From positions 1-64,000 of IMG/VR virus record IMGVR_UViG_3300027575_000002: 64,000 bases of DNA; one strand, 5' to 3'. This document shows, in pieces, positions 13,716 to 64,000 of this stretch (its first letter is position 1; each line of letters begins with the position of its first letter). Below the pieces are notes generated by a model. The model made no database searches, was not told where the DNA came from, and was given only the letters and a program-made list of their open reading frames with translations. The position numbers and the translations under genes were made by a program. Source of the DNA: a virus.

Positions 13716-13981
13716 GCGAAGATTCAAAACTCGTGCCAAAGACATGGAGCGACTTTCGCAAAATCCTCCTAGACTACATCGGTGAAGGGTGGGCGGAGCA
13801 GCTCGACACCGCAGTCAGGGAGGAGTTCGGTGGTGACGATTACAGTACACCATCACCCTGCGGTGAGTGCGGTGCTCCGTACCTAGAGTCACACAAGCCA
13901 GAGTGCACTCGTCCGGCGCGTGACCGCGAGTTCATGGAGAAGTACATCCCCGTTGACCGAACGCAGGAGGGTCTGGACTAA
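13712..13981 (+). CDS. hypothetical protein
   Basis: ATGA overlap with portal stop; 89 aa. Confidence 0.45.
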   Translation: MSEDSKLVPKTWSDFRKILLDYIGEGWAEQLDTAVREEFGGDDYSTPSPCGECGAPYLESHKPECTRPARDREFMEKYIPVDRTQEGLD

Positions 13982-14045
13982 GTGTAGTCACTACCTACAC
14001 ATCACTGGCGCAGGCCAAGTCCTTTGTCGAGCAAGAGAACGCAAA

Positions 14046-45203: not shown

Positions 45204-45440
45204 TTATTGGATGACTTCTGGTTCGTATTGGTCCTTGGCCTCGTACCGCAAGTCCTTCAGCGGTACTGGCACCTGCCCCTCGATTCCTCTTATCCTTCGC
45301 ACCTCGTCCACCGAGTACCCGCTGTGCAGGCCCGCCCAGCAGTCCTGGCACACGGCCAGCTCCTGCTGCGTGGACCCGTCGGGGCGCTTGATGACGTGGC
45401 GCTTCTTGGGTTGGTGTGCTTCGACCTTGTCGAAGCACAC
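45204..45440 (-). CDS. small protein ending in QYEPEVIQ
   Basis: 78 aa, GTG start with no clear SD; CQDCW; C-terminal motif shared with four other ORFs. Confidence 0.45.
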   Translation of the reverse strand: MCFDKVEAHQPKKRHVIKRPDGSTQQELAVCQDCWAGLHSGYSVDEVRRIRGIEGQVPVPLKDLRYEAKDQYEPEVIQ

Positions 45441-48861: not shown

Positions 48862-49050
48862 ATGCTGGTACTTTCACGCAGGGTGGGCGAGTCCGTAGTG
48901 CTGCGCGACCGCGACACTAACGAGGTGGTCGCCACCGTCAAGGTGGCGATGGTGGACGGTAGCAAGGTTCGCTTGGGGTTCGACGCACCGATGTCAATCC
49001 GCATCGACAGGGAGGAGATCGACCTGGAAATCAACGGAGCCACTCGATGA
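48862..49050 (+). CDS. csrA: CsrA/RsmA-family RNA-binding translational regulator
   Basis: MLVLSRRVGESVVL...KVRLGFDAPMSIRIDREEI aligns with CsrA (MLILTRRVGE...QVRIGVNAPKEVSVHREEI); 62 aa; SD GAGGAGG. Confidence 0.8.
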   Translation: MLVLSRRVGESVVLRDRDTNEVVATVKVAMVDGSKVRLGFDAPMSIRIDREEIDLEINGATR

Positions 49051-50033: not shown

Positions 50034-50410
50034 TGTTAAACTTAAATGACTACTTAAATAACTACTACGAGAAGGAAGAGGCTAAGGCTCTGATAGCAGT
50101 AGGAGCCACCGGCGGGTGCGTGGTTATTACCACTAACAGCGAGTGGTTGACGACAGAAATGAATGCTGTTGGGAGCTGCAGCGCTGATGACCTCGGCATC
50201 GATTACAGTGATTGCGACGCCGGGTTGTATCTGTGGGAAGGTACGCTAAAAACAGTGAATAGCGGACCTTGGGACTGCCCCGAACCGGAAACAGAAATCA
50301 TCGGCAAAGTCAGGGAAGTGCAGGTAAGCGAATTGCCATCACTTCTGAATATGTCACCGCCAGCACAATTACTCCTGGAGGACGGCGATGCCGATACTAG
50401 CAAGTCCTAG
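50030..50410 (+). CDS. hypothetical protein (low-GC gene)
   Basis: 126 aa; A/T-rich 5' end. Confidence 0.45.
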   Translation: MMLNLNDYLNNYYEKEEAKALIAVGATGGCVVITTNSEWLTTEMNAVGSCSADDLGIDYSDCDAGLYLWEGTLKTVNSGPWDCPEPETEIIGKVREVQVSELPSLLNMSPPAQLLLEDGDADTSKS

Positions 50411-51482
50411 CATCAATCTCACCGATGAGCAGAACGACGCCATACACTACCTCACCACCAGCAAGGACCAAGTGAGAAAAATGGGTGGGTACGGAGGCAC
50501 GGGGAAGTCAACCATCGTAAGGGAGCTAGCGAGACGACTTCCGCATTGTGCAGTGTGCACGTTCACGGGCAAGGCAGCGCAGGTGCTCCGCAAGAAGGGA
50601 GTCCCGGCGTCCACGATCCACTCGCTGATCTATACCCCGACAAAAGACCCGGACACGGGCAAGGTGGTGTTCACCCTCCGACCGCCGTGGGAGTTCGCAG
50701 CGCAGACGATCCTCGTGGACGAGGCCAGCATGGTCAACAAGCGGCTGGACGCGGACCTGCGGTCGTTCGGCGCGCCGATCGTCTACATAGGAGACCACGG
50801 ACAGCTGGAGCCGGTTGGAGGTGAGGACTTCAGCCTCATGGCAAAGCCTGACATCACACTTGAGAAGATTCACCGCAATGCGGGCGAAATAGCGTACTTC
50901 GCCCAACACCTGCGCGAGGGCAATAACGCGAAGGACTGGGACGCGGAAAAGATGTTGGATGGTAGCGAGCACGAACTTGGCAAGGTCGAGATAGTCACCG
51001 CCAATCAACTCGGGGACCTCGCAATCACCGAAGACGACCAGCTAATATGTGCGTTCAACCGGACGCGGTGTGACCTAAACAGCGCAGTACGCCAGCACCT
51101 CGGCAAGCCACAGGGCACACCGGTAGAGGGCGACCGCGTGATATGCCTACAGAACAGCAGGGAGTACGCACTGTTCAACGGCATGATGGGGACCATCGCC
51201 AACCTGTACGACGACAAGGACGAGATGGTGTTCGAGTCCGGCGACTTCCGAGTGCGCGTCGGCTTCAACAGGGAGGCCTTCGGCGCGGAGAAGAAGCCAG
51301 AGCACAGCTGGCAGGACATCCCCTTCGACTGGGCATACTGTATCACGTGCCACAAGGCGCAGGGCGACGAGTTCGAGCACGCAATCGTGGTGGAGCAGAG
51401 GTGCAGCAAATGGAGCCATTCTCGCTGGAGTTATACTGCGGCGAGCCGCGCAAAGAATAAGTTGACGTGGGTACTAGCATGA
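50388..51482 (+). CDS. Dda/RecD-like SF1 helicase
   Basis: GGYGGTGKST, ILVDEASMV, IGDHGQLEPVG, ITCHKAQGDEFEHAIVV, YTAASRAKNKL. Confidence 0.8.
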   Translation: MPILASPSINLTDEQNDAIHYLTTSKDQVRKMGGYGGTGKSTIVRELARRLPHCAVCTFTGKAAQVLRKKGVPASTIHSLIYTPTKDPDTGKVVFTLRPPWEFAAQTILVDEASMVNKRLDADLRSFGAPIVYIGDHGQLEPVGGEDFSLMAKPDITLEKIHRNAGEIAYFAQHLREGNNAKDWDAEKMLDGSEHELGKVEIVTANQLGDLAITEDDQLICAFNRTRCDLNSAVRQHLGKPQGTPVEGDRVICLQNSREYALFNGMMGTIANLYDDKDEMVFESGDFRVRVGFNREAFGAEKKPEHSWQDIPFDWAYCITCHKAQGDEFEHAIVVEQRCSKWSHSRWSYTAASRAKNKLTWVLA

Positions 51483-51682
51483 TACAATACTACAAGGGCG
51501 AGCAACCGTACCCAGTCGGCGACAGCAGGAACGACCGCAAGTTTACGTTCGCAGCACCGGAGGACCACCTGATTCCACCTGCACCGGTTTCGCTGACCGC
51601 AGAGCAGTGGGAGGACATCGACAGGGACCGAGCGGAACTAGAGGACTGGCTGGACCACCTTGGAAGGACATACGATGCCTAA
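51479..51682 (+). CDS. hypothetical protein
   Basis: 67 aa, ATGA coupling. Confidence 0.4.
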   Translation: MIQYYKGEQPYPVGDSRNDRKFTFAAPEDHLIPPAPVSLTAEQWEDIDRDRAELEDWLDHLGRTYDA

Positions 51683-52028
51683 GCTCTTGGCTCCATCCCC
51701 TGCACCGACCTCGGCGATCACCGCCGCGCTGACCAAGACCCTCGACGCCAGGGCTGGCATATACGCAGTGCGCAACCGGAGCAACGGCAAGGTGTTCGTC
51801 GTCGCGCACACCTACGACCAGCGCGACCACTGGTTGGACTTCCAGACGCTGCTCGACGCGGGTGGGTGCGTGCAGCACAAGCACATACAGGCGGCGTGGA
51901 AGAAGTATGGCAGGAATTACTTCGACTGCTGGCCGCTGATCGACTGCCCTATGGTACAGTTGGAGCAGAAGCGCGTCGAGTTCATCCGCGCTTTCGAGAG
52001 CGACGACCCGAAGAGGGGGTACAACTGA
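51675..52028 (+). CDS. GIY-YIG nuclease domain protein (domain only)
   Basis: GIYAVRNRSNGKVFVVAHTYDQRDHW...HKHIQAAWKKYG fits GIY...(Y/F)(I/V)G...R...H...N-type motifs; 117 aa, no extra DNA-binding domain. Confidence 0.6.
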   Translation: MPKLLAPSPAPTSAITAALTKTLDARAGIYAVRNRSNGKVFVVAHTYDQRDHWLDFQTLLDAGGCVQHKHIQAAWKKYGRNYFDCWPLIDCPMVQLEQKRVEFIRAFESDDPKRGYN

Positions 52029-52453
52029 TGCCGATACTACAAGCTCCAACACCGCAGCTTGCCGAACTACAACCAAGACAAAAGGACTACGGTGAGTGGC
52101 AGACGAAGTTTACGCTGTTATCCACTACTCTGCAACTGGCAGTGCCATTGTGGATTGAACGTCTACGGTCATCAGGATGGGAACACATCCAAGCACGAGC
52201 CAAACAGTGCTCGCAAATTGTCGGCGAAAAGGGCGACGTAATACTGTTTCGCGGCGGTAAGAAGGGCGAGAGCGCAGCAGCATTTAATGCACTTGCGGAA
52301 GGTATTGCATGCCTAGCGTTCGCACCGGGCGGTGTCAAGATATTCGGTGAACACTGGGAGGCTTGCCAAGAAGAGGATGCGCCAGGAAGGACCAAGGCTG
52401 CTCTGTCCACTATGGTGGATGCTATGCAACGTTTGTTCAAGGAGCCATCATAA
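52028..52453 (+). CDS. hypothetical protein
   Basis: 141 aa; starts MPILQAP. Confidence 0.45.
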   Translation: MPILQAPTPQLAELQPRQKDYGEWQTKFTLLSTTLQLAVPLWIERLRSSGWEHIQARAKQCSQIVGEKGDVILFRGGKKGESAAAFNALAEGIACLAFAPGGVKIFGEHWEACQEEDAPGRTKAALSTMVDAMQRLFKEPS

Positions 52454-52701
52454 TGCCTGTACTTCAAGCACCTGAACCACAGCAGAGCAAACCAAAATTG
52501 TGCATTGTCCACAAGGACGACAAGCACTTCGCCATTAAGCACGGGCTGTGCATGGAGTGCTACACCGCAGCGAAGCGCGCCGTGGAGTCCAGCCAGGAGA
52601 CGTGGGAGGGATTCATCAGGATGGGCATAGCGACGGACGACAGCGGGGACGACAAGTTCATGCAGGCACTCAAGGGTGCGAAGATTTTGGGAGGGAAGTA
52701 G
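52453..52701 (+). CDS. hypothetical protein
   Basis: 82 aa; starts MPVLQAP; TAATG coupling. Confidence 0.45.
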   Translation: MPVLQAPEPQQSKPKLCIVHKDDKHFAIKHGLCMECYTAAKRAVESSQETWEGFIRMGIATDDSGDDKFMQALKGAKILGGK

Positions 52702-52703
52702 GG

Positions 52704-53642
52704 ATGCCGGTATTGAGCAAGGCAACGAGCGCGAACGGTGTGCAGCCGCACACACCAAGTGCATTGACCGACCTCGGTGGGTTCTTCACCAACGCGATAC
52801 CAACCACCGAACTAGTGGAGTCCTACGTCTACGTCTGTGCGTACGGCCGAAATCGATGCGGTAAGACGACACTGGCCTGTGAGTTTCCAAAACCGCTGCT
52901 GCTTGTGTCGCTAGAACCAGAAGAGAACGGCGGTGCAACGTCAGTAGCCAACGTACCCGGCATTACCCTTGAGCGCGTCCGGCACTTCTCACTCAAGGGC
53001 AGGGACGGCAGCCTGGAGCGCGTCTATGGTACACAGAAGTTCGTCGGCATGGCCGAGCAGCTCAAGAAGAGTAACCCGTTCAAAACAGTGGTGATCGACG
53101 GCGCGGTTAGTCTGCAAGACATATGCCTGTGCGAGATCGCAGGACTGACCAAGGTGCCGGAGATGCTCAAGTGGGGCGGGTTCCCGGAGGGGACGTACCA
53201 GCTCCGCGCCGAGAAGCTGCGCGAGTCGCTCCGCCCTTGGCTGGAGCTGAGGTGCAACATAGTCGTCCTCGCGCAGGAGAAGGACCACGCACCACCGCCT
53301 CCAGATCGAGGCAAGCACAAGCTGCTGGAGACCATGCAGCAAGGATCGTTCATGGCCCCGGCCATCGGGGACACCAACGCGCTGTGGCTCCAGAACCACT
53401 GTGGGTACATACTGCATATGTACGAAGACGAGGTGGTCGAGTACAAGGACGACCCCAACGCCGGCAGGTTGGAGATACGGACGGGAAAGCGGCAGAGGTT
53501 CCTGCGCTTGTTGTATCATCCTCAGTACGCAGCAGGGGGTCGATGGAGCTACGGAAAAGATGTCCCCGAATTTGTAACAGCACCGACACCCACTGGACTT
53601 TATAGGGCAATGGTACAGTACATACCTTCGCTCAAGGTATAA
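52704..53642 (+). CDS. Sak4-like (AAA_24) RecA-fold ATPase
   Basis: Walker A YGRNRCGKTT, Walker B VVIDGAVSL, VVLAQEKDH; size and context fit phage AAA_24 annealing/recombination ATPases. Confidence 0.6.
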   Translation: MPVLSKATSANGVQPHTPSALTDLGGFFTNAIPTTELVESYVYVCAYGRNRCGKTTLACEFPKPLLLVSLEPEENGGATSVANVPGITLERVRHFSLKGRDGSLERVYGTQKFVGMAEQLKKSNPFKTVVIDGAVSLQDICLCEIAGLTKVPEMLKWGGFPEGTYQLRAEKLRESLRPWLELRCNIVVLAQEKDHAPPPPDRGKHKLLETMQQGSFMAPAIGDTNALWLQNHCGYILHMYEDEVVEYKDDPNAGRLEIRTGKRQRFLRLLYHPQYAAGGRWSYGKDVPEFVTAPTPTGLYRAMVQYIPSLKV

Positions 53643-53698
53643 TGAAACCAACGATACGGTAGTCAACATTCACACCAGCCAAGGGAGAAAGTTAAACC

Positions 53699-54961
53699 AT
53701 GCCAGTCCAACAGCAGCAGTCGTCACTCGGTACGGTCCTGGGCCAGCGGCTCATGGACGCGCACAACATGAACAAGGACAAGCCGGTGGAGTTCGGGCAG
53801 ATGCGCCTGCCGACCGGCATCAAGCGCGGGGTGTTCCACCTCCAGACCATCAAGGTAGGCACGTACAAGGCCGACGTGCAGGAGACCGCGCTGCGCGGCC
53901 AAATGTACATGATGCTCGGCGGAGTCGCCGTGTCGCCGGAGCAGGAGGACGGCGAGAAGGTCGCCGGACTGTCGATGCAGAACATCATGATCCCGATGTG
54001 CGACACGCCGATCCACAACAACAAGCACACCACCAAGAAGAATTGGCCGCACGACGGGACCAAGTTCGAGGACCACTGGGGTGACTTCATCAACTTCATC
54101 CACTGGTTCGGCGTCCCGCCGTGCCAAGCCAAGACCTCGGCGGAGGTGGAGGCGTACTACATGGGTGCCGCCGCGATGCTGACGGACCCCAAGAACCCGA
54201 AGTACCAGGGTCCGCGCTACGTCAGCTTCGAGACCTACGACTTCACCCCACCTGCCGACCCCAAGAAGCCGGGTGAAAAGCCGCAGCCGATCACCCTTGA
54301 GAAGTGGCTGGGGCCGACGCAGTACACTCCGGGGACCGACCCCTCATTAAACGGCGTCGGCCACCCAAGCGATCCGCCCCCCGCTGCGGCGATGAACCCA
54401 TGCGAGCCGTTCACCGAGCCGCCGCAGGCGTCTCCGCCTCCCAGCAACCAGACCTTCGCCGAGGCGCCGACTGACCCCGCTGACGAAATCGCTGCCCTCG
54501 CTGCTCTAGCGCGGACGCAGGAGCAGAAGGCCACAGCGGAGAACCTGGCTGCGGGTGCGAAGCTCTTCGAGTACGCCAAGGCCAACGTCGGCGCGACGCA
54601 GGAGCAGTGCGAGGCCGCGACGTGGGAGCAGCTGGAATTGATGGCCCTCGGCGACAGCGGTGCGATCCCGGTCGTGACTGCCGCCGCACCACCACCAACT
54701 CAAGCAGCGCCTGCCGCTGCCCCTCCGCAGGTCAACGCCCCGGCAGTCGGCAGCAAGTGGAAGTTCGCCAAGCGCAAGCTGGACGGCACGCCACTCCTCC
54801 GCCCCGACAAGACTCCGTTCACACCGATCCCATGCGAGGTGGCGACGGTGGACACTGCGGCGAAGACCGTCACCCTCAAGGACGACAAGGGCCAGCCGGT
54901 GAAGGCGCCGGGCGGCAAGAGCGAGGCGGTGGTGAAGTGGGAGTGGCTCGAAGCGGCGTAA
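53699..54961 (+). CDS. hypothetical protein (position suggests ssDNA-binding role; unproven)
   Basis: 420 aa, globular N-terminal half, long Pro/Ala linker, small C-terminal domain. Confidence 0.5.
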   Translation: MPVQQQQSSLGTVLGQRLMDAHNMNKDKPVEFGQMRLPTGIKRGVFHLQTIKVGTYKADVQETALRGQMYMMLGGVAVSPEQEDGEKVAGLSMQNIMIPMCDTPIHNNKHTTKKNWPHDGTKFEDHWGDFINFIHWFGVPPCQAKTSAEVEAYYMGAAAMLTDPKNPKYQGPRYVSFETYDFTPPADPKKPGEKPQPITLEKWLGPTQYTPGTDPSLNGVGHPSDPPPAAAMNPCEPFTEPPQASPPPSNQTFAEAPTDPADEIAALAALARTQEQKATAENLAAGAKLFEYAKANVGATQEQCEAATWEQLELMALGDSGAIPVVTAAAPPPTQAAPAAAPPQVNAPAVGSKWKFAKRKLDGTPLLRPDKTPFTPIPCEVATVDTAAKTVTLKDDKGQPVKAPGGKSEAVVKWEWLEAA

Positions 54962-55100
54962 GAACCACCATGCTCCTAGCCATGCAGACGAGTTTCTTAC
55001 AACCAGAGGTCTACTCCTGAGCTGGTTGGGTGCTACACCTCGTTGAATTTACTAGGGGCATACTTAACCCGTGACACCGAGGGAAGTGTGGGTCGGTGTG

Positions 55101-55211
55101 TGGACCATATTCGCCGAACGGTATCGGCGTGCTCTAGAGTGGCAGCGGGTGCGAGAGTCGCGATGCTAAACACCTGCATAAGTCTAACGGGTTCAACTCC
55201 CGGATGGTCCA
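55101..55211 (+). ncRNA. tRNA-like structured element (8-bp acceptor-like helix plus T-arm), non-canonical
   Basis: TGGACCAT (55101-55108) pairs with ATGGTCCA (55204-55211). T-arm ACGGG-TTCAACT-CCCGG directly abuts the 3' strand. 6-bp hairpin CGCCGA-ACGGTA-TCGGCG sits in the D-arm position. The 57 nt in between do not give a normal anticodon arm. Confidence 0.3.
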
Positions 55212-55230
55212 ATCCTCTAAGGAGGTATGT

Positions 55231-55674
55231 ATGGATCGACGACACCACATCGTACCACCGGGTCGAGTGCGCAGGGTGCGCTTCGTCCAGGTGGTACACC
55301 ACAGAAGGAGAAGTATCTTGGACGCAAAACTGAGTTGGATTCCGCCGGCACCGCCGATGCTGCCGAACGTGGCACCGGTCACGGCCTACGTAGTCAACCT
55401 AACGCAGAATGGGACCGCACTGCCGGCGGTGAACGTACCGCAGAGCGCAGCGAGTGACCTGAGCGGCTACTCGCTCGACCTGGCGACCGACGTACCGGGC
55501 CTAGTGATCGCCGACAACGATACGTTCGCGGGGTCGGTGCAGCCCGTCAACACCTCCGTCACCCCGAACCTCGCGGGACCGGCGACGCCGTTTGGTCCGC
55601 TGACCATCGTCGAGGCTCCGGTTACGGTCGCACCGGGACCGGTGCAGAACCTGACCTTCGTGCAGACGAGCTGA
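55231..55674 (+). CDS. hypothetical protein (Arg-rich N-terminus, FN3-like body)
   Basis: Strong SD TAAGGAGGT 5 nt upstream. Confidence 0.5.
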   Translation: MDRRHHIVPPGRVRRVRFVQVVHHRRRSILDAKLSWIPPAPPMLPNVAPVTAYVVNLTQNGTALPAVNVPQSAASDLSGYSLDLATDVPGLVIADNDTFAGSVQPVNTSVTPNLAGPATPFGPLTIVEAPVTVAPGPVQNLTFVQTS

Positions 55675-55697
55675 AAGTAAGGCCACGTGACCAGGAA

Positions 55698-55730
55698 CGG
55701 CACTCGCAAGCTGGGGTGCCGCTTCTCATT
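55698..55730 (+). terminator. candidate terminator hairpin
   Basis: CGGCAC/GTGCCG stem with 12-nt loop, then CTTCTCATTTC. Confidence 0.35.
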
Positions 55731-55757
55731 TCATAGTGTTATGGATGACTAGCAACC

Positions 55758-58013
55758 ATGCCACACCTACTAGCCTGCGACACAGAGTGTACCGGCGTCG
55801 ATCCTCGACATGGGTCGCGCCCGTACATCGTCACAACCTACGACCAAGACACCAAGCTTAACACATTCTGGCAATGGGACGTTGACCCAGTAACGCGTGT
55901 ACCACAAGTCCCGCAGGACGATAAAACGGCTATCCAAGCGCTGCTGAACTCAGCCGACCTCATCTACTTCCAAGTCTCGAAGTTTGATGGGCATATGCTA
56001 CGCACCATAGACGTAGAAATACCTTGGTCCAAGGTACGCGACACAATCATGTCGGGCCACCTCCTCGCAAGCAACCACCCGCACGGCCTGGAGAAGATGT
56101 GCGCTGAGTACCTTGGCTACGACATCGAGCACTTCGAGGCCGCAGTCCAAAAGGCGACGGTGTTGACCCGCAAGATTGTCAAGCGGGACTACCCGACCTG
56201 GCGACTGGCCAAGGAAGGGGACAGGTCCATGCCGTCTATCGACCAGTCCTCCAAGCGCGACGAGGACAAGGAGTGGAAGGCGGACATGTGGCTCCTGCGT
56301 GCTCTGATAAAGCAGACTGTGGCCGACTTGATAGGCGTACCTACCGAGGACTTCACCCTCGCGGACATTGAGGAGTCAGACCCGGACATCGTCCACGCCG
56401 CTTGCGATTACAAGGAGTACCCCTACGAGTGGCTGACGCTAACCAAGGACTACGGCAACGCTGATAGTGCGACTACGCTGCCCCTCGGCCTGCGTATGGA
56501 GCAATTGATACGTGAGCGCGGACTGTGGAAGATATACGAGGAGCGCATGAAGCTCCCGCAGATCGCGTTCGAGATGGAGGAGCGCGGTGTCACGGCGTCG
56601 GAGGTCAACACCCTCGGCGTAATCGAGCAGTACGGCATGGAGGCCGCGGAGGCGGAGGACCAGTGCGTCTCGATAGCCAAGAAGTATGGGCACGACCTGG
56701 AGCTACCCGCCGGTGCGACGGTCAACGACAGCCTGCGCGAGTTCTTCTACGGCAGTACGTGGCTGGAGTGCCCGCGCTGCGGCAAGGAGACCAAGGTCAA
56801 GGAGTGGAGCGACGTGCTCAAGGACGACAACCAGCTGTGCCCCAAGTGCGAGAAGAAGGGCAAGGGTCACGCCCTGGTCCACACCAAGGTCCACCGCAGG
56901 AGGAACCTGGGACTGGAGAAGGTCTATAGCGAGAAGACCGGCAACCCTACGCTCGACAAGGATGCGATGGCGTACTATCTGGCGACACTGGAGGGCGAGC
57001 CGTGGGACTTCGTGGACGCGCTGATGACCAAGCGCTCGCGCGCCGTGGCGGTCGGGTACGCGGAGTCCTACGTGTGGTTCTGGCTTCCGACCAAAGACCC
57101 GCTGTGGCGCAGGATGCACCCGACGTACAACCCGGTCGGCACGGACCACCTGCGGTGGAGCAGCTACAACTACAACATGCAGAACGTCTCCGACCAGGAG
57201 GACTCGCCGCTGCGCGGGTGCTTCGGCCCGGCACCAGGGCGGGAGTGGTGGTCGATGGACTTCAAGAACTTGGAGCTGCGCATACCCGCCTACGAGTCTG
57301 GCGAGCCTGCGATGATCGAGCTGTTCGAGAGGTCCAGCGATCCCCCATACTTCGGCAGCTACCACCTGCTGAACGCCAGCATCATCTACCCCGACGAGTT
57401 CTGGCCGCTGGCCGAGAGGGAGGGGGAGTTCAAGCACCAGCACAAGAACAAGTACAAGCGCATCAAGGGATTCGGCTTCGCGAAGCAGTACGGATGCGGG
57501 CGGCGCAAGGCCGACAAGGTGACGGGCGTCGCCGGGTCGTTCGACATGCTGGACGCCAAGCTGCCGCTGGTCGCCAAGCTCACCGACTACATTATCAACT
57601 TCGCGCGGAAGAACGGGTACGTGGAGACTATACCCGACAGGGATATCGACCCGGACAGGGGATATCCGATCCTGGCGTCGAGGGACGAGCGCGGCAACGT
57701 GGGCACGACCACGCCGTTCAACTACCACACCAGCGGTACGGCCATGCAGTGTACCAACAAGGCGATGGTCCAGTGCGAGGAGAAGGCCCTGCGACCGTGG
57801 AGGGCGGAAGGGTTCGACGCATTCATCACCGCGCAGGTGCATGACCAGCTGGTGTTCGACATGCCGGCCGGGGAGGGGATGAGCAACATACCGAGGGCGA
57901 CGAGGTTGAGGGAGCTAATGGAGGACAGCGGACGCGCGATTAGCATACCGACGCCGGTTTCGGTAGAGTTTATTCCGCATGGCAAGTCGTGGGCGGAAGG
58001 GGTAGCAGTATGA
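55758..58013 (+). CDS. family A DNA polymerase with 3'-5' exonuclease domain
   Basis: ExoI LACDTECTG; motif A MDFKNLELRIPA; motif B KRIKGFGFAKQYGCG; motif C QVHDQLVFD; CxxC...CxxC insertion at 56769-56849. Confidence 0.9.
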   Translation: MPHLLACDTECTGVDPRHGSRPYIVTTYDQDTKLNTFWQWDVDPVTRVPQVPQDDKTAIQALLNSADLIYFQVSKFDGHMLRTIDVEIPWSKVRDTIMSGHLLASNHPHGLEKMCAEYLGYDIEHFEAAVQKATVLTRKIVKRDYPTWRLAKEGDRSMPSIDQSSKRDEDKEWKADMWLLRALIKQTVADLIGVPTEDFTLADIEESDPDIVHAACDYKEYPYEWLTLTKDYGNADSATTLPLGLRMEQLIRERGLWKIYEERMKLPQIAFEMEERGVTASEVNTLGVIEQYGMEAAEAEDQCVSIAKKYGHDLELPAGATVNDSLREFFYGSTWLECPRCGKETKVKEWSDVLKDDNQLCPKCEKKGKGHALVHTKVHRRRNLGLEKVYSEKTGNPTLDKDAMAYYLATLEGEPWDFVDALMTKRSRAVAVGYAESYVWFWLPTKDPLWRRMHPTYNPVGTDHLRWSSYNYNMQNVSDQEDSPLRGCFGPAPGREWWSMDFKNLELRIPAYESGEPAMIELFERSSDPPYFGSYHLLNASIIYPDEFWPLAEREGEFKHQHKNKYKRIKGFGFAKQYGCGRRKADKVTGVAGSFDMLDAKLPLVAKLTDYIINFARKNGYVETIPDRDIDPDRGYPILASRDERGNVGTTTPFNYHTSGTAMQCTNKAMVQCEEKALRPWRAEGFDAFITAQVHDQLVFDMPAGEGMSNIPRATRLRELMEDSGRAISIPTPVSVEFIPHGKSWAEGVAV

Positions 58014-58495
58014 CGGCCGCACATCTACAGCACAAATTGCGAAGCAGCAAGGCATTCCGGCCAAGGATGTACAGACTACCCAAGCAATTGACGCTGACGC
58101 ACTTGCTAGATTGGCGCAACCTCGCGCTATTCATGGGATGGCCGTGGGTGGCTGATGGAGAGACTGAAGAATGGTCAAATACCGGATATGCAGGTGTACG
58201 GCACAGGGTGCAATTAACTAATGAGGAGGCGACAAAGAGACGGTGGAGTGACCTGTTGTGCCAACGGGTCAACGTCGGGCATCCGTGTGAACGCAAGCAG
58301 CAGACACGCGGTCAGTGGATGGCCGAGTGTCTGTCGCAAGGGCTGGGCATCAAGAAGGGGTCGATAGCAGCGCGAATAGAGGAAGCAAAGCGACTAAGAC
58401 CGGACTTATACGATCCGAATTGGCAGGCTACTCCAGAGAAGGCAGAAGTGCCTGCCGCATTCGTTGACGATTACGAACCAACGGTCATTCAGTAA
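58010..58495 (+). CDS. hypothetical protein ending in DDYEPTVIQ
   Basis: ATGA coupling to the polymerase stop; 161 aa. Confidence 0.5.
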   Translation: MTAAHLQHKLRSSKAFRPRMYRLPKQLTLTHLLDWRNLALFMGWPWVADGETEEWSNTGYAGVRHRVQLTNEEATKRRWSDLLCQRVNVGHPCERKQQTRGQWMAECLSQGLGIKKGSIAARIEEAKRLRPDLYDPNWQATPEKAEVPAAFVDDYEPTVIQ

Positions 58496-58560
58496 GCAAG
58501 CCAGGCGGCGGGAATGCCCATTGCTATTGCCACGATTGCGTGGCTCGCGTCCTGACGGCT

Positions 58561-58598
58561 AAAACGAGGAAACCCCCGCCAATTTGGATCGGCAGGGG
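58561..58598 (-). terminator. intrinsic terminator for leftward islet
   Basis: On the minus strand, CCCCTGCC/GGCGGGGG stem (one G-U pair), 10-nt loop, then TTTCCTCGTTTT. Confidence 0.5.
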
Positions 58599-58625
58599 TC
58601 TCGCGGGGAAAATTGGACGGTCGCA

Positions 58626-59084
58626 CTACGCGGTGGCGGTCGCCTGTTCCGCCGGCTGTTCGGTGGCGGGCGGGGTCGCGGCGGTCGTCTGCGCGGCCTT
58701 CGCCTTGGCCTTCTTCTCCGCCTTCTTCGCGGTTGCGGCCTCCTTCTCCTCGGCCCGCTTCATGTCCTCCTCGACCCTCTGGTCGTCGGTCATTGGGGTG
58801 GCCAGGATGAAGAGTTGATTGTCGGGCAGCTTGTCGCACGACTTGCCGTTGGCGTCGAACGCGAACTTGGAGGTCTTGACGGTCTTGTAGCGGATTCGCG
58901 CGGCGGTCTTGGCCTTAACCTTCATGTCGTCGCGCGTGATGGGGTCGTGGAAGTCCTCGCCCTGCGTGATGATCCACGGTTGGCCGTTCAGGATGGTGTC
59001 CCAGTCGTACTTGCACCCGGTCCCTCCGGTCGCGGCCTTGAACTCGAACGTCTTCCCCTTGTTGATTTTTACGGCTTGAGGCAT
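58626..59084 (-). CDS. hypothetical protein with Lys/Ala-rich histone-H1-like tail
   Basis: 152 aa from internal Met (MPQAVKINKG...); C-terminal KRAEEKEAATAKKAEKKAKAKAAQ. Confidence 0.5.
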   Translation of the reverse strand: MPQAVKINKGKTFEFKAATGGTGCKYDWDTILNGQPWIITQGEDFHDPITRDDMKVKAKTAARIRYKTVKTSKFAFDANGKSCDKLPDNQLFILATPMTDDQRVEEDMKRAEEKEAATAKKAEKKAKAKAAQTTAATPPATEQPAEQATATA

Positions 59085-59143
59085 GGTAGACTGACCTTTC
59101 GGATTGTGGTCTGGTGGGCCTCCCGACGCGGGAGGTATACCCA

Positions 59144-59362
59144 TCAGTCCGGTTGTTTGGCGGATCGCATGCTGTTGAGTACGAGGTCGGAGGCCAGACA
59201 AACGTCGCGGTTGGTGCCACCGTCCCATCGGACTTCGACCAGGTAGGGGTCGAGGGACACGACGGACAGGACCACACCGAGGCGACCGGTTCCCTTCTGC
59301 CGGACACGCTGGCGATCACCTATGCGTCGAGATGGAGAGGGGAAAGATTGCACGGCGTTCAT
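59144..59362 (-). CDS. hypothetical protein
   Basis: 72 aa; strong SD GGAGG. Confidence 0.5.
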   Translation of the reverse strand: MNAVQSFPSPSRRIGDRQRVRQKGTGRLGVVLSVVSLDPYLVEVRWDGGTNRDVCLASDLVLNSMRSAKQPD

Positions 59363-59384
59363 GGTCTGATCCTCCTATTCGCAT

Positions 59385-59402
59385 GAATGACGCACGTCAT
59401 TC
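59385..59402. promoter_or_regulatory. 18-bp palindrome GAATGACG-CA-CGTCATTC
   Basis: Perfect 8-bp arms, 23 nt upstream of the start of the minus-strand gene 59144..59362. Confidence 0.4.
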
Positions 59403-59558
59403 GTACATAGGTATCATAGCACCATACCGAACGAATGCAATAGCAGTATGACGAGAAAACGAAAATAGCTGGTAGGCAGGCAACATAAACCTATCGACGC
59501 GGTAGGATAGAACGGTAGCAACTAGCAACACACTACGTACTTACGGCGAGGTGCGGAC

Positions 59559-59739
59559 ATGCCGAAATTGATAGCACCGATACCAAAAAATACCGAAAAT
59601 AATTCGGAAATTCAACCATACTGGACGAGTAACATCCCCGGATTCAGCCGAGATGGTAAATCGAACCCTTGAGGCGATTGAGATAGTCAAAAACTACAGG
59701 TACGACCAAGCAGACTACGAACCGGAGGTAATACAATAA
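59559..59739 (+). pseudogene. decayed mini-gene carrying both terminal motifs in two frames
   Basis: ATG 59559 opens MPKLIAPIPKN... (stop 59670-59672). A second frame, open from 59575, ends ...NYRYDQADYEPEVIQ-stop (59737-59739), overlapping the primase ATG. Confidence 0.3.
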
Positions 59740-62048
59740 TGCCAAAGTTGATAGCACCCGCGCTGACTTCAACTGCTAACGAAATTGACCACCTTCGTGC
59801 GTTCGAGCACCACAAGATCGAACTGACGGACAGAGGCAGCGAGGCCGTGGGTACGTGCCCGTTTTGCTTGAAGGACGGAAAATTGTACGTCAGTACGGAC
59901 ACTGGCCAGTGGCAATGCAAGGTGTGCGGCAAGTCGGGCAACCCGCTAACGCTCCTGCGCGAACTGTGGGCAGTGAGCGATGCCGCTACCAATGGGGCGA
60001 GCAGGACACTGGCCGAGGAGCGCGGGCTGCTGGACCCGCTGACGGTGACGGCGTGGGGGGTGTGCCAGTCGGTAGTAGACGGCTGCTGGATGGTTCCGGG
60101 GTACGATACCAAGGGGAACCTGACGCAGCTCTACAGGCGCGTGAGGATGCTCAAGGGTAGCGAGTGGGTCAACGTGCTTCTGCCGACGCCGGGCGTGTGG
60201 CCAGACGGTAAGACGCACGCGCTGCACATGGCGAGCGGCACGTACGACCCGGCCAGACCACGCGTAGACATCATGGAGGGGCCGTGGGATGCTATGGCGT
60301 TCTACGAGGTCGCGCTGAGCAGCAAGTGGGGTACAGACGGTAAACTGGAGCCGACTGGGAGCATGTCGTCGTCCATCTTGCACGACACCAACGTGGTGGC
60401 CGTACCTGGATGCAACACGTTCCGCGACGAGTGGGTGGAGATGTGCAGAGGGAAGGACGTTACAATATGGTTCGACAGTGACCACCCGATAGTGGACTCC
60501 GCGACCAACGAGCCGCGCCGACCGTGGGTGAGGCCAGGGTTCGACGCCACATTCCGCAACGCGAAGAAGCTGTCGGGCATCGCCAAGTCGGTGAGGTGGC
60601 TGCGCTGGGGAAAAGAAGGATTCGACCCTGAAAAGAAGAACGGATATGACGTTCGAGACCACCTGCGGTCCAACGCCAACCGCAGGGTCGCGCTTGAGGA
60701 GTTGTACGCCAAGGTCGAGCCGGCACCAGCCGACTGGTTCTCGGCGGCGACCAACTACCACGTCGGCAACGGGACTACGCACGCAGGAGCCGCGCCGATA
60801 GAGCCGATCCACTGCGACAACTGGCAGGACTGCATATCGTCGTGGCGCGACCCGGTGAGGGGCGAGGCGGCGCTGGAGTGGCGGCAGGACATAGAGGACG
60901 CGCTGGCCGTGATGCTGGCGGTGTGCGCGAGTACCAAGCAGGCGGGCGGGAACCAGTTGGTATTCCAGTTGGTGGCACCGCCGTCCAGCGCCAAGACCAC
61001 GCTGTGCAAGGGCCTGCTGGTGTCGAGGACGTGCCACAGCCTGGAGAACCTGACCGGGTTCTTCAGCGGGTACAAGATACCCGGAGAGAAGGACAAGGAC
61101 TGCTCGCTGATAGCCAGGATCAACGGCAAGACGCTGGTGACGTGCGAGGCGGACGTGATGGTCAACAACCCGATGTGGCCGGAGCTGATGGCGGAGTATC
61201 GGCGAATCCACGACGGTGCGGGTGGCAAGACGTTCAAGAACATGGATACCGACTTGCTGCACGAGGGGCTGCGCACGCCCTGGATACTGGCGGGCACGGA
61301 GAAACTGCTGGACGTGGACATGAGCCAGGTAGGGGACCGATTCCTGCGGGTGAAGATCAACACGCCGACAGAGAAGGTAAAGCGCGACATCATGCGGCGG
61401 TCGTTCCGCAACGAGCTGTCGGCGATGGCGTCCACGAGCAACGGCACGGCGGCAAGCATCAACAACAAGTTGCAGGCTAGAGCGCAGGCGATCACCGGCG
61501 GGTACGTGGACTGGCTGCGCGACAACGTGGAGGCGAAACTGGCGACCACGGTGATGCCGGAGCGGAGCGAGGACATGTGCCTGGACCTCGGTGAACTGAT
61601 AGCAGACATGCGAGCCAGACCGAATACAGACAAGCGCAAGGTCGAGACGCACGACACCAAGGAGCTACCGGCCCGCATATCCGCGCAGCTCGGTAGGCTG
61701 GCGATGTGCGCTGCGGTAGCATTGAATAAGCAGGAGGTCAGCACCGACATACTCCGCTTGGTCCGCAAGGTGACCATCGACAGCGCTGACGGACACAGTC
61801 TCAACGTGGCGAAGTGGCTGTGCAGGACTACGGACAGCGGCAAGTCCCACCAGGAGATGATGGGCGTCACGCCGGAGCAGGTCAAGCTGTGGTCGGGCAT
61901 GGCGAACGACAGGGTGGAGGCGTACCTCGCGTTCATGTGCAAGATCGGGATAGTGCGGCGAGAGGGTCCGTCGCGCAGCGGCGGGTGGTGGAAGCTGACG
62001 GACAGGTCGGCGGACTTGTGCAACAGACTGGAGATAAAGTATGCCTAA
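59739..62048 (+). CDS. DNA primase (Zn-ribbon plus TOPRIM) fused to P-loop NTPase (primase-helicase)
   Basis: CPFCLKDGKLYVSTDTGQWQCKVCGKSG; TOPRIM-like DIMEGPWDAMAF and IWFDSDHP; P-loop-like APPSSAKTT. Confidence 0.75.
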   Translation: MPKLIAPALTSTANEIDHLRAFEHHKIELTDRGSEAVGTCPFCLKDGKLYVSTDTGQWQCKVCGKSGNPLTLLRELWAVSDAATNGASRTLAEERGLLDPLTVTAWGVCQSVVDGCWMVPGYDTKGNLTQLYRRVRMLKGSEWVNVLLPTPGVWPDGKTHALHMASGTYDPARPRVDIMEGPWDAMAFYEVALSSKWGTDGKLEPTGSMSSSILHDTNVVAVPGCNTFRDEWVEMCRGKDVTIWFDSDHPIVDSATNEPRRPWVRPGFDATFRNAKKLSGIAKSVRWLRWGKEGFDPEKKNGYDVRDHLRSNANRRVALEELYAKVEPAPADWFSAATNYHVGNGTTHAGAAPIEPIHCDNWQDCISSWRDPVRGEAALEWRQDIEDALAVMLAVCASTKQAGGNQLVFQLVAPPSSAKTTLCKGLLVSRTCHSLENLTGFFSGYKIPGEKDKDCSLIARINGKTLVTCEADVMVNNPMWPELMAEYRRIHDGAGGKTFKNMDTDLLHEGLRTPWILAGTEKLLDVDMSQVGDRFLRVKINTPTEKVKRDIMRRSFRNELSAMASTSNGTAASINNKLQARAQAITGGYVDWLRDNVEAKLATTVMPERSEDMCLDLGELIADMRARPNTDKRKVETHDTKELPARISAQLGRLAMCAAVALNKQEVSTDILRLVRKVTIDSADGHSLNVAKWLCRTTDSGKSHQEMMGVTPEQVKLWSGMANDRVEAYLAFMCKIGIVRREGPSRSGGWWKLTDRSADLCNRLEIKYA

Positions 62049-63786
62049 GTTAGTTCAACCCGTGGTGACCACAGAGCAACCACAAACGAGTGAAACAATC
62101 ACTAAGCAATTAAGCCTTGCGGAGTTGATATCGCTGCATGAGCAGCTGAGGTGCGACCCACCGCCAGCAGACAAAAAGTCGCTGTCGGACAGGTTCCTCG
62201 TGCCGCCGTTCAGCGTGCTGGACGCGAGGCAGGGATACTGGCAGACACGCAAGCGCATGTGGATTGCATTGGGGATACAAAGTGAAATCGGCAGGGGCGA
62301 TACGCCGTCTACGTCCGCACGAGTTGGACCGGGCGACGCTCCCACCTATAGTCCTATAGGTTGGAGCGTCGCCAACAATGGCCTGCTCGGATTCTCCGAG
62401 CAGGCCAGGAACCACTACCGCGAGGCAAACGCCACGCCTGGAGGGAGCACGCTTCCAGCGTGCTCCCTTAAGAACGGCAAGACGCAGAGGGGGGATGGCC
62501 GTGGCAGACCACTTGCCAGAACCTTCGGTTCTGGCAACCCTGGTGATTTGGCTGAGGGGTTCAATATCAACAGTGGAAAAACAAATAGGTTGGCTCTCGG
62601 CGGGACGGGAGCCAACTCATGCTGGTTAGGCACAGCAGGGCCAGTAGGTGACCACGGTATCAACAAGAAGGCAGAAAATGCTGATGCTTCACTATATGGT
62701 GCATACGGCAAAGACGATGATGTGAGCCGCCGCAATGCGGCGGCTCAACCCCAGTCTGGTACGTCGATATTCGATCCTGTCGTGTGCGAGCTGGCGTACC
62801 GCTGGTTTTGCCCGCAGTTGGGTAGTGTGCTTGACCCCTTCGCGGGTGGATCAGTGCGCGGAATAGTGGCGGCGAAACTGGGCAGGAAGTACACAGGCAT
62901 GGACCTGAGCGCGAGGCAACTCGCTGCCAACGAGGCGCAGGCCGAGGCGATAGTGTCGAACAACAGACCGAGGTGGGTCGCCGGGGATTCGACGACGGTG
63001 TGTGAGGCAGTGCCAGGCGAGTACGACTTCGTGTTCAGCTGCCCCCCATACTTCGACCTCGAACTCTACAGCCACCACGAGGCCGACCTGTCGAACATGA
63101 CCTACGAGCAGTTCCTGGTGAAGTACCGCGAGATTGTCACCAACAGCTGCTCGATGCTCAAGGACGACAGGTTCGCGTGCTTCGTGGTGGGTGACCTGCG
63201 CGACGAGCGCGGCATGTACCGCAGGTTCGTGAGCGACACGATCCAGGCGTTCGTGGATGCAGGGCTGGAGTTGTACAACCGCGCCGTACTCGTCACCAGC
63301 GTTGGGTCACTGCCGATCAGGGTAGGCAGGCAGTTCAACAAATATCGCAAGTTGGGAACCACGCACCAGAACGTACTGGTGTTCGTCAAGGGTGACCCAG
63401 GCAAAGCGAGCGCAACGTGCGGCAGCGTGGACATGTCGGACTTGGAGTATCCGCAGCAGGGGGAATTGGCCATAGTCACCAATGACTTGACCGACGACGA
63501 TGTGCAAGTATTGGACGGTCGCGCGAGCGAAGACGGCGACATGATAGTGTTAGACTGCTCCACCGAGGAGGCAACCGTAGCCTGTGACGTGATCCGGTTT
63601 CAGGCATGGAAGGAGGGCAGAAATGCCCCACGCATATACATGCTAGGCAAGTCTGGATGGTCGCAGGTAGAGAGCGGCCAGATGTGCTACACGTCTAATG
63701 ACCGCGTGTACCTGCACCGCGAACACTTCCCAAACGCGCAGCTACCCGCTGTGGTGAACGACTACGAGCCGGAGGTGATACAATAG
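62041..63786 (+). CDS. DNA methyltransferase (N6-A/N4-C class)
   Basis: FLVPPFSVLDARQGYWQTRKRMW, motif I VLDPFAGGSVRG, motif IV FVFSCPPYFDLE; ends NDYEPEVIQ. Confidence 0.8.
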   Translation: MPKLVQPVVTTEQPQTSETITKQLSLAELISLHEQLRCDPPPADKKSLSDRFLVPPFSVLDARQGYWQTRKRMWIALGIQSEIGRGDTPSTSARVGPGDAPTYSPIGWSVANNGLLGFSEQARNHYREANATPGGSTLPACSLKNGKTQRGDGRGRPLARTFGSGNPGDLAEGFNINSGKTNRLALGGTGANSCWLGTAGPVGDHGINKKAENADASLYGAYGKDDDVSRRNAAAQPQSGTSIFDPVVCELAYRWFCPQLGSVLDPFAGGSVRGIVAAKLGRKYTGMDLSARQLAANEAQAEAIVSNNRPRWVAGDSTTVCEAVPGEYDFVFSCPPYFDLELYSHHEADLSNMTYEQFLVKYREIVTNSCSMLKDDRFACFVVGDLRDERGMYRRFVSDTIQAFVDAGLELYNRAVLVTSVGSLPIRVGRQFNKYRKLGTTHQNVLVFVKGDPGKASATCGSVDMSDLEYPQQGELAIVTNDLTDDDVQVLDGRASEDGDMIVLDCSTEEATVACDVIRFQAWKEGRNAPRIYMLGKSGWSQVESGQMCYTSNDRVYLHREHFPNAQLPAVVNDYEPEVIQ

Positions 63787-63790
63787 AGTC

Positions 63791-64000
63791 ATGCCAATAC
63801 TAAAATACCCAATGTTAACTCCAATTGAAAGACATGGAAACTTCCTAGTCAAGAGGGACGATCTTTGGGACGAGTGCGGCGTTGCTCACGGGGGCAAGGC
63901 AAGAACTGCTGGACTGATATGCCGCTACGTACTATCGAAGGGAGGGATTGCCATAGCCGTCGCGCTTGATCGGAACTCATCTGTGCCTGGAATGCTGTCG
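63791..64000 (+). CDS. PLP-dependent enzyme, ACC deaminase/D-cysteine desulfhydrase-like (3' end outside window)
   Basis: YPMLTPIERHGNFLVKRDDLWDECGVAHGGKARTAG resembles ...TPl.r...lyiKRDDl...GGNKxRkL of fold-type II PLP enzymes; runs to the window edge. Confidence 0.4.
   Translation, partial: MPILKYPMLTPIERHGNFLVKRDDLWDECGVAHGGKARTAGLICRYVLSKGGIAIAVALDRNSSVPGMLS

Follow-up and report, generated by a model that had tools for sequence, protein, structure and literature searches.

A Met-Pro N-terminal peptide common to DNA-metabolism proteins of a soil phage and its uncultured clade, with residues that vary from genome to genome

Shared terminal peptides wire many enzymes to one hub or destination, as in the interactomes of the sliding clamp and of the single-stranded DNA-binding protein (SSB), the capsid targeting sequence (CTS) of bacteriophage T4 and the cargo of encapsulins. 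Here we compare these systems with a heptapeptide, MPxLxxP, that heads early and replication genes in a stretch of 64,000 nucleotides of viral DNA (positions 1 to 64,000 of the IMG/VR record IMGVR_UViG_3300027575_000002; the whole stretch is called the window below). This window makes up most of a 67.7 kb contig and represents a tailed-phage genome from soil metagenomes. The T4 CTS is a short N-terminal peptide present on unrelated proteins of one phage, recognized by one reader and divergent between phages (PMC3012670). The likeness to the present case lies in a single N-terminal peptide common to unrelated proteins of one phage. Nevertheless, the cargo of the CTS consists of virion-internal proteins and the peptide is cut off at a defined site by the prohead protease, whereas the carriers found here are replication, recombination and modification enzymes and all their tags begin with Met-Pro. 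In this regard, no conserved residues forming a prohead-protease cleavage pattern were found after the tag, either in the window tags or in the primase and Sak4 alignments. By analogy, the T4 CTS is the nearest precedent for a targeting function.

Docking motifs of replication hubs include the beta-clamp motif QL[SD]LF, the PCNA-interacting peptide (PIP) box, the SSB tip DDDIPF and the acidic tails of T7 gp4 and gp2.5. The interactomes of the clamp, PCNA and SSB gather methyltransferases, helicases and nucleases at one hub by means of short terminal peptides that sit on flexible linkers. The tags share with them a short terminal peptide, a flexible linker and a variety of DNA-metabolism enzymes as carriers, and the SSB tip likewise needs a free terminus, but they differ in their M-P-x-hydrophobic consensus, their restriction to the extreme N-terminus and their genome-specific flavour. 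The clamp and PIP consensus sequences (QL[SD]LF, QLxLxL, Qxx[LIM]xx[FY][FY]) were not found in the tags, which have neither Gln1 nor the aromatic pair, and there was no sliding clamp among the Pfam/PHROG matches for the replication module. Most tags, if Met is removed as we would expect, expose P-x-[LIV] (PKLI, PILQ, PVLQ, PxIP) and in this resemble the Pro/N-degrons of GID4 (PTLV, PIPV). The GID4 pathway is a ubiquitin ligase and is not expected in bacteria or phages, and family scans that covered the replication module and part of the head block turned up no GID4-type recognin or ubiquitin ligase. The tags do not correspond to the Leu/N-degron of ClpS, since their N-terminus would be Met or Pro and not Leu, Phe, Tyr or Trp, nor to secretion signals (Sec, Tat, lipobox, prepilin), as they span 7-9 residues and have polar Pro/Ser/Thr-rich linkers behind them.

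The start-associated sequences of Cluster K mycobacteriophages and the operators of T4 RegA and of CsrA are nucleotide motifs located upstream of or across the start codon. The element described here also recurs at many translation starts of one phage, but it is the encoded residues that are conserved and not the bases. Encapsulin cargo-loading peptides and the encapsulation peptides of microcompartments are short terminal peptides on linkers, carried by unrelated enzymes and co-evolving with the shell; in our case, by contrast, no shell gene was evident, the cargo would be DNA enzymes and the sequence pattern is another. In literature searches we found no described Met-Pro N-terminal tag shared by phage replication proteins, nor any such code drifting in concert within each genome. 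In kind, the element belongs with terminal address or docking peptides; it is new in its carriers, its consensus and its genome-wise concerted drift.

Occurrence of the motif in the window and in related genomes

A preliminary description of the window had listed ten MPxLxxP starts and three partial matches, all of which translated as claimed. A six-frame scan for [ATG/GTG/TTG]-P-x-L-x-x-P gave only 13 sites in the whole 64 kb, 10 of them ATG codons heading long open reading frames (ORFs) and all of these within 42.5-63.8 kb. The corresponding DNA pattern ATGCC-N4-YT-N7-CC was observed 11 times, while 100 dinucleotide shuffles gave 1.11 ± 1.01 with a maximum of 5, and this enrichment speaks against chance. 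The peptide core P[KIVR]L[IVLQKA][AQSY]P appeared 10 times in the six frames, in nine cases with Met right before it; the placement of the motif is thus strictly N-terminal. Independent pipeline gene calls placed the same starts, apart from differences at 63791 and 52028, and an independent gene caller differed at 42557 (see below). As had been noted, the virion block is devoid of MPxLxxP starts, its sole Met-Pro (MP) start being MPGVTCP at 6402. Three additional copies were detected: VPKLIAPTP, with a GTG start, in a second N6/N4 methyltransferase that begins just outside the window (L001 17447) and whose C-terminal part occupies window positions 69-1016; MPQAVKI at 59084 on the minus strand; and MSPVLKRP, shifted by one residue (L001 16334, minus strand). 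The proposal that the motif marks a whole temporal class was overstated: the tag is carried by the primase, the Sak4-like protein, methyltransferases, helicases and some small proteins, but it is missing from roughly five small genes at the head of either divergent operon, from UDG and from several other genes of the module.

The loci compared (71 IMG/VR, 80 metagenome, three with independent gene calls) extended these observations to relatives of the phage. The primase had more than 170 homologues, located on contigs of 65-80 kb, and 99 of the best 120 began with MP, mostly as MPVSxR. M-P-x-hydrophobic starts recur across the clade in the primase, in the Sak4-like ATPase, in DNA methyltransferases and in some small proteins, with residues 3-7 specific to each genome. 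The proposed comparison of orthologues, meant to tell whether the heptad is retained where the rest diverges, showed that the M-P-x-hydrophobic start is kept while linker and remainder diverge; residues 3-7 vary by genome. The tags were MPLVPRI, MPLVPRV, MPLIPTG, MPKIPEK, MPVIPEK and MPSVPNT in L080; MPPLVKKS, MPPLVKKV, MPQLVKT and MPKLVSQ in L081; MPVSPRR, MPVSRSR, MPVSIAS, MPVSRRK and MPIARRD in L082 and L004; MPxIP in L031; MPRLIDE/D in L006; and MPKLPSQ, MPKLPSS and MPQLPSK in L099. Independent pipeline calls contained the flavours MP[LVK][VI]P (five times) in L080, MPxLV[KS] (four times) in L081 and MPVSxxR in L082, while the threefold MP[KQ]LPS of L099 came from our own gene caller. In distant relatives, with primases about 30% identical, tags were few or none.

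Among genes with an MP start, identity at positions 3-7 reached 0.66 inside single loci, as opposed to 0.42 when different loci were compared (z about 9.7; 0/500 permutations); the same test on genes without an MP start gave 0.33 and 0.31. Tag similarity was 0.65 for different families of the same genome, 0.69 for the same family in different genomes (orthologues under 50% identity) and 0.40 when both differed. Unrelated proteins of one genome therefore share the tag as closely as orthologues do across genomes. In addition, Pro2 was found in 11.9% of the other genes where the primase starts with MP and in 5.1% otherwise (p = 1e-4). The share of MP starts differed among families: 55% in primases, 77% in Sak4-like proteins, 50% in the family of a protein of 420 amino acids (aa), 55-90% in methyltransferase families, 90% in a 143-aa family, 67% in a 541-aa family, 14% in the family A DNA polymerase (PolA) and 0-11% in most others.

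In a search of 1.84 billion representative proteins, the start M-P-x-[IV]-x-[KR]-Q was present in 96 of 122 full-length Sak4-like relatives, with identities as low as 25%, so that MPVLSKA of the window, previously regarded as a partial match, is the family motif in its local flavour. In these relatives the motif is followed by a low-complexity linker of 20-35 residues rich in Pro, Lys, Ala and Thr, then by a conserved GS[IV]LSRA[IV]PV element and the P-loop. The AlphaFold2 model of the Sak4-like protein had a core with a predicted local distance difference test (pLDDT) value above 90, and residues 1-20 were modelled as coil at about 60. In 94 primases the tether between the tag and the first conserved motif, LRPYxFHG, measured 9-46 residues (median 18); Pro (2.9x), Asn (2.0x) and Ser and Thr (1.6x) were over-represented in it, and Trp, Met, Leu, Cys, Tyr, Phe and Ile under-represented. 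The linkers behind the other tags of the window (SPAPTSAITAAL, PPPVEKEQPATNGQATAPPQP, VVTTEQPQTSETITKQ) resemble those of primase and Sak4. In the 581-aa methyltransferase of the window, MPKLVQP and a linker of 22 residues precede the M..ELIE start of its untagged orthologues, and the Dda-like helicase starts MPILASPS here versus MTATQDVD in its L080 orthologue. As these aligned starts show, in this lineage the tag was gained by N-terminal extension of a previously untagged helicase and methyltransferase.

Conservation of residues rather than bases, and a companion C-terminal tail

The codons of the tag vary among copies, as initially noticed (CCG, CCT, CCA and CCC for Pro2; CTA, CTC, CTT, TTG and TTA for Leu4). 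When the residue was the same, codon identity at positions 3-8 was 35.2% within genomes and 34.6% between genomes in 109 non-redundant related loci, and 21.6% at positions 2-8 in the window genome. Such background-level identity implies that the tags are upheld neither by gene conversion nor by an RNA or DNA site. Likewise, a DNA repeat search detected the C-terminal tail described below but not the N-terminal tags. The idea of a peptide-level tag is thus supported by residue conservation with free synonymous sites, by the disordered tether and by the M-P-x-hydrophobic start kept in orthologues.

The companion idea, that A/T-rich early codons keep the start open, held in part. Codons 2-6 of the tagged genes are preferentially A/T-ending, their G+C content at third positions being 0.36-0.50, compared with 0.56-0.62 for untagged starts and 0.78 for gene bodies, and Leu4 is never CTG, though CTG accounts for 45% of the Leu codons. 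The predicted folding of the region from −30 to +33, computed with shuffles, was weaker at tagged starts (−9.5 vs. −13.4 kcal/mol, p = 0.006), with z about +0.4 and no shared hairpin. Nevertheless, a preference of this type cannot fix Pro2, Leu4 and Pro7, and the combination of A/T-ending codons and weak folding matches the usual selection for open initiation regions, as an overlay on the tag. The further suggestion of a CsrA binding site or other RNA regulator at these starts was not supported: nucleotide conservation, a GGA within the tag and a conserved hairpin were all absent. Nor was there support for an RNA start element similar to a RegA operator, given the free synonymous sites and the lack of both a DNA repeat and a shared hairpin. 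Anti-Shine-Dalgarno pairing by GCACC at codons 6-7 did not occur in the predicted structures. The phage does encode a CsrA homologue of 62 aa (48862-49050, plus strand), among the small genes that head the rightward operon; the tags lack the GGA motif.

The shared C-terminal tail mentioned in the preliminary description is real, and [VF]xDYEP[ET]VIQ-stop ends six reading frames of the genome, those of both methyltransferases, of the 161-aa, 162-aa and 78-aa proteins and of a gene remnant. On the plus strand, DYEPEVIQ ends the second methyltransferase, the one with VPKLIAPTP just outside the window (990-1016), the remnant (59713-59739), where the GGAGGT Shine-Dalgarno sequence of the primase gene falls within its codons, and the 581-aa methyltransferase (63760-63786), while DYEPTVIQ ends the 161-aa protein located after PolA, which has no gene behind it (58469-58495). 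On the minus strand, QYEPEVIQ ends the 78-aa protein upstream of the 541-aa gene (45204-45230), and the sixth copy lies at L001 16331-16357. A Pro/Ala-rich stretch comes before every copy, synonymous differences distinguish the copies and all three stop codons are used. The codons for P-E-V serve, in four or five copies, at the same time as the GGAGGTGAT Shine-Dalgarno sequence of the following gene; the copy of the 161-aa protein, behind which no gene lies, has Thr in place of Glu and has lost this Shine-Dalgarno sequence. DYEPEVIQ-COOH on its Pro/Ala linker loosely fits the description of an SSB tip, the N-terminal tag not being C-terminal. Other genomes have tails of their own, PPRKLRGH-stop or TPRRLRGH-stop on three L082 proteins (12295-16306) and [FV]SLFD-stop on three L059 proteins, the latter recalling the clamp-binding tails of T4-like polymerases. 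Since a C-terminal tag cannot act in translation initiation, the parallel tail argues for recognition at the protein level.

Proposed docking to a common hub and alternative explanations

The terminal position, the conservation of residues, the flexible tether, the spread by extension and the co-evolving flavour together point to a short linear motif with one reader per phage-host system. It must be considered that the carriers are DNA-transaction enzymes, for which tethering to a hub of the replisome or of a DNA factory would make sense. We tentatively propose, with somewhat less than even confidence, that the tag serves as a docking peptide at the terminus and brings DNA-metabolism enzymes together at one hub. 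In every phage-host system one reader would bind the N-terminal peptide; it would most likely be a phage-encoded hub of the replication and recombination machinery and less likely a variable hub of the host. Binding would gather the primase-helicase, the Sak4-like annealase, methyltransferases, accessory helicases, the nuclease and small proteins on the replicating phage DNA. With Pro at position 2, methionine aminopeptidase would expose an N-terminal proline, which would cap the peptide against aminopeptidases, whereas residue 4 (Leu, Ile or Val) and residues 5-7 would provide a specificity that co-evolves with the reader, and such co-evolution would give each genome its own flavour. The DYEPEVIQ-COOH tail would be a second tag obeying the same logic. 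We infer the binding to a partner, the identity of this partner as a replisome hub and the removal of Met from the features of the sequences.

The 420-aa protein (53699-54961, plus strand), encoded between the Sak4-like gene and PolA and with an N-terminus, MPVQQQ, that is invariant among homologues, is a candidate part of the hub, put forward as a lead only. Its AlphaFold2 model was mediocre (pLDDT 63.6) and contained a beta-rich N-terminal domain (order beta1-3/alpha/beta4-5), Pro-rich linkers and a small C-terminal Tudor/SH3-like barrel ending in KWEWLE (Foldseek E about 0.1, target template-modelling score about 0.7). Foldseek gave weak matches of the protein to phage DUF669, "Asp-rich" and SSB proteins (E from 1e-5 to 3e-2), and some homologues end in DIPF, DLPY or SIAY, like the bacterial SSB tip. 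Sequence searches of PDB and Pfam were empty, and the protein had no association in the gene-presence profiling. The SSB-like layout predicted for this neighbour and its DIPF-type tips would make terminal-peptide docking plausible in this replisome.

Several points weigh against docking to a hub. No reader emerged, and phylogenetic profiling over loci of ±10 kb singled out no gene; one family was negatively associated. AlphaFold2 docked the tag nowhere in cis in the models of the Sak4-like and 420-aa proteins, and none of the known consensus sequences for binding to a clamp, SSB or polymerase agrees with the motif. The A/T-rich codons and weak structure of the tagged starts point to some translational benefit alongside the tag. 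Finally, the sequence evidence, from which Met removal and the true starts in this uncultured clade are also read, does not separate docking from degradation or targeting.

If the tag is a docking code, it shows which proteins work together in these uncultured phages, several of them without known function, and it offers a handle for finding the hub, naturally co-evolving pairs of peptide and reader that engineering could draw on and a rule of start-codon choice for annotators of this clade. A testable idea is that the methyltransferases are tethered to the replisome and protect the nascent phage DNA. In a bolder version, which we consider possible but on the unlikely side, the clade would have a recognition system for N-terminal proline, with a phage reader of the free P-x-hydrophobic N-terminus and a second reader for the C-tail, forming an address code that sends all DNA-transaction enzymes to a replication factory or compartment, or into the capsid, and that co-evolves genome by genome. 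If true, a linear sorting signal would for the first time be known on phage replication proteins, and Pro/N-terminal recognition would have its first counterpart in prokaryotes or viruses.

Instead of docking, the N-terminal tag, together with the tail as a C-terminal degron, might be read by a host AAA+ protease or adaptor of the ClpXP, ClpAP or Lon type, or by a phage adaptor, and so limit the lifetime of the enzymes. We consider this unlikely, even though terminal position, disordered tether and tags at both ends resemble bacterial protease tags. ClpX recognizes both N- and C-terminal motifs and lambda O has an N-terminal ClpX signal, but bacterial N-degrons use Leu, Phe, Tyr and Trp, and a recognin for N-terminal Pro is not known in bacteria. 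An N-terminal Pro followed by a hydrophobic residue, which is the Pro/N-degron pattern of eukaryotic GID4 (PMC9098119), would also speak for a degron. Conserved host proteases, however, fit poorly with a tag that drifts from genome to genome, no protease or adaptor gene was seen in the replication module of this genome, and there is no obvious reason to destabilize the primase-helicase and the annealase throughout a lytic-looking clade. Genome-specific flavours would also follow if the reader were a co-evolving scaffold or shell, that is, if the peptide directed its carriers into the prohead in the style of the T4 CTS, for injection with the DNA, or into a replication compartment built by the phage. 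In the T4 case the logic of one N-terminal peptide across unrelated proteins is the same, and a head maturation protease is indeed encoded here (20482-21741). DNA methyltransferases are the most consistently tagged proteins, and helicases and the nuclease are tagged too, which is reminiscent of packaged anti-restriction proteins such as DarB of phage P1. We nevertheless regard such targeting as quite unlikely: the replicative primase-helicase and the annealase would be among the cargo, which has no known precedent and would amount to several hundred kDa, the tag is not followed by a conserved protease site, no gene resembling those of a shell or of chimallin was recognized and the virion genes wholly lack the tag.

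An effect on translation, in which the first codons or the nascent heptapeptide tune initiation and early elongation (as an expression leader, through a slow fMet-Pro bond or as a nascent-peptide sensor), seems to us quite improbable as the explanation of the tag. The A/T-ending codons 2-6, the avoidance of CTG at Leu4, the lower structure of the tagged starts given above and the strong Shine-Dalgarno sequences upstream of them would all agree with it, and a host-specific optimum could yield genome-specific flavours. Nevertheless, residues and not bases are conserved, the Sak4 motif is kept across lineages of differing G+C content, and the long disordered linker that always stands behind the tag would be needless in a translational leader. 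Moreover, the capsid genes, which are the most highly expressed, lack the tag, the C-terminal tail has the same pattern yet cannot affect initiation, and no GGA/CsrA-type site, hairpin or shared RNA motif was detected. As to chance, gene-calling artefacts or shared descent or gene conversion of the 5' ends, two starts are uncertain (42557 and 63791) and one tagged gene is a pseudogene remnant. We hold this explanation to be highly improbable in view of the 11 observed against 1.1 expected sites, the agreement of the independent gene calls and the within-genome identity never reached in 500 permutations, and because the tagged proteins are unrelated in fold, with codon identity at background and no DNA repeat.

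Tagged genes and genomic setting

The replication module is arranged as two divergent operons that begin at about 47.2-47.7 kb; coordinates below are those of the window. The leftward operon (47139 to 40662) contains several small genes and those of the 541-aa protein and the UvrD-like helicase. The rightward one, from 47720, carries small genes, CsrA, UDG, the Dda-like helicase, a GIY-YIG-like protein, two small proteins, the Sak4-like AAA_24 ATPase, the 420-aa protein, PolA, the primase-helicase, the ParB-like/N6-N4 methyltransferase and a pyridoxal phosphate (PLP) enzyme; it runs past the end of the window, the second methyltransferase lying beyond it.

On the plus strand, MPILASP (50388-50408) heads the Dda-like helicase (50388-51482), whose L080 orthologue is untagged. 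MPKLLAP, followed by SP, heads the GIY-YIG/homing-endonuclease-like protein of 117 aa (51675-51695), in which a Pro/Ser/Thr/Ala linker separates the tag from the domain match that begins at residue 28. MPILQAP(TP) (52028-52048) starts a 141-aa protein of unknown function. Its gene (52028-52453) was not called by the public pipeline, yet there is an orthologue in L099 (45% identity, E 4e-22) and the protein is tagged in both genomes, MPKLPSQL being the L099 flavour; we take the ORF at 52028 to be a real gene. MPVLQAP(EP) (52453-52473) heads an 82-aa Cys-rich protein with orthologues that are tagged in L080 (MPSVPNT) and L006 (MPSIDLG) and untagged in L082 and L031. MPVLSKA (52704-52724), of the family type M-P-x-[IVL]-x-[KR]-Q, belongs to the Sak4-like AAA_24 ATPase. 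The start of the candidate SSB-like 420-aa protein, MPVQQQQ (53699-53719), with M1, P2, Q6 and S8 invariant in 12 homologues, is kept by orthology and is not a tag plus linker. The partial match MPHLLAC (55758-55778) of PolA runs directly into the exonuclease motif DTECTG, and the orthologues mostly have untagged M(I/L)xLDTE starts.

MPKLIAP(IP) at 59559-59579 heads a frameshifted remnant of 37 codons, with the DYEPEVIQ tail appearing later in another frame. The remnant (59559-59739) comprises the intact tag MPKLIAPIP, about 110 nucleotides of other sequence and the C-tail out of frame, and it directly adjoins the start of the primase gene (TAATG); its appearance is that of a tagged gene with an internal deletion and a frameshift. 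The primase-helicase itself (769 aa) starts with MPKLIAP (59739-59759), and its homologues mostly start with MP. MPKLVQP (62041-62061) heads the 581-aa ParB-like/N6-N4 DNA methyltransferase, which also carries the C-tail and has untagged orthologues. MPILKYP (63791-63811) is a possible tag of the PLP-dependent (PALP) enzyme, for which the pipeline called the rival start 63812 instead of 63791; the domain match begins at residue 8.

On the minus strand, MPRLVSP(PP) (45152-45172) heads the 541-aa protein of unknown function, with a long Pro/Ala/Gln-rich linker behind the tag. Four of six members of this family start with MP, and no Pfam, PHROG or PDB match was obtained, so that the earlier ParB-like label is unconfirmed. 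MPVLRNP (42537-42557) begins at an internal Met of the UvrD-like helicase ORF (40662-42704) and is a possible true start, about 80 residues ahead of the helicase match; the independent gene caller instead puts the start at 42704, with a TAATG overlap to the upstream stop. From 42704 to 42557 there are 49 codons, Arg/Pro/Gly-rich and non-coding in appearance, and a Cys/His-rich stretch (CTNCD...ECDHDWQDC) separates MPVLRNP from the helicase domain. A 152-aa protein starts with MPQAVKI (59064-59084, also on the minus strand), and its L082 orthologue, MPKPVKL, supports the MP start.

Primase genes identical to that of the window were present on contigs from ENA, JGI and Logan. Nucleotide searches found no DNA-level relative of the window among GenBank phages, protein searches with PolA, the Sak4-like protein and the primase found no close relative there, and the primase family had zero homologues among 50,697 GenBank phage records; by these searches, the clade has no cultured member. 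A scan of GTDB genomes for the host returned only phage contigs binned into unrelated metagenome-assembled genomes, labelled archaeon, Dehalococcoidia, Planctomycetota and Pseudobdellovibrionaceae, and these assignments are probably due to contamination by phage contigs.

Apart from the MP starts, the only genome-specific N-terminal signature was a small ML[TQ][IL] group in the head genes of the window, whose head and packaging block includes a portal and the maturation protease. The starts of this group, all on the plus strand, are MLTIRD (19483), MLQLDY (20482, the head maturation protease), MLTLAD (22319) and MLTIVN (25723); they use differing Leu codons and may constitute a second, smaller signature of virion genes. 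The family A polymerase (55758-58013, plus strand) contains about 300 residues between its exonuclease match (5-126) and its polymerase match (446-747), among them a Cys-rich segment at 334-366. Inteins were observed in tagged gene families of relatives, namely a LAGLIDADG-containing insertion in a methyltransferase (L080 12268-15291) and a PF14890 intein in a primase (protein P0118).

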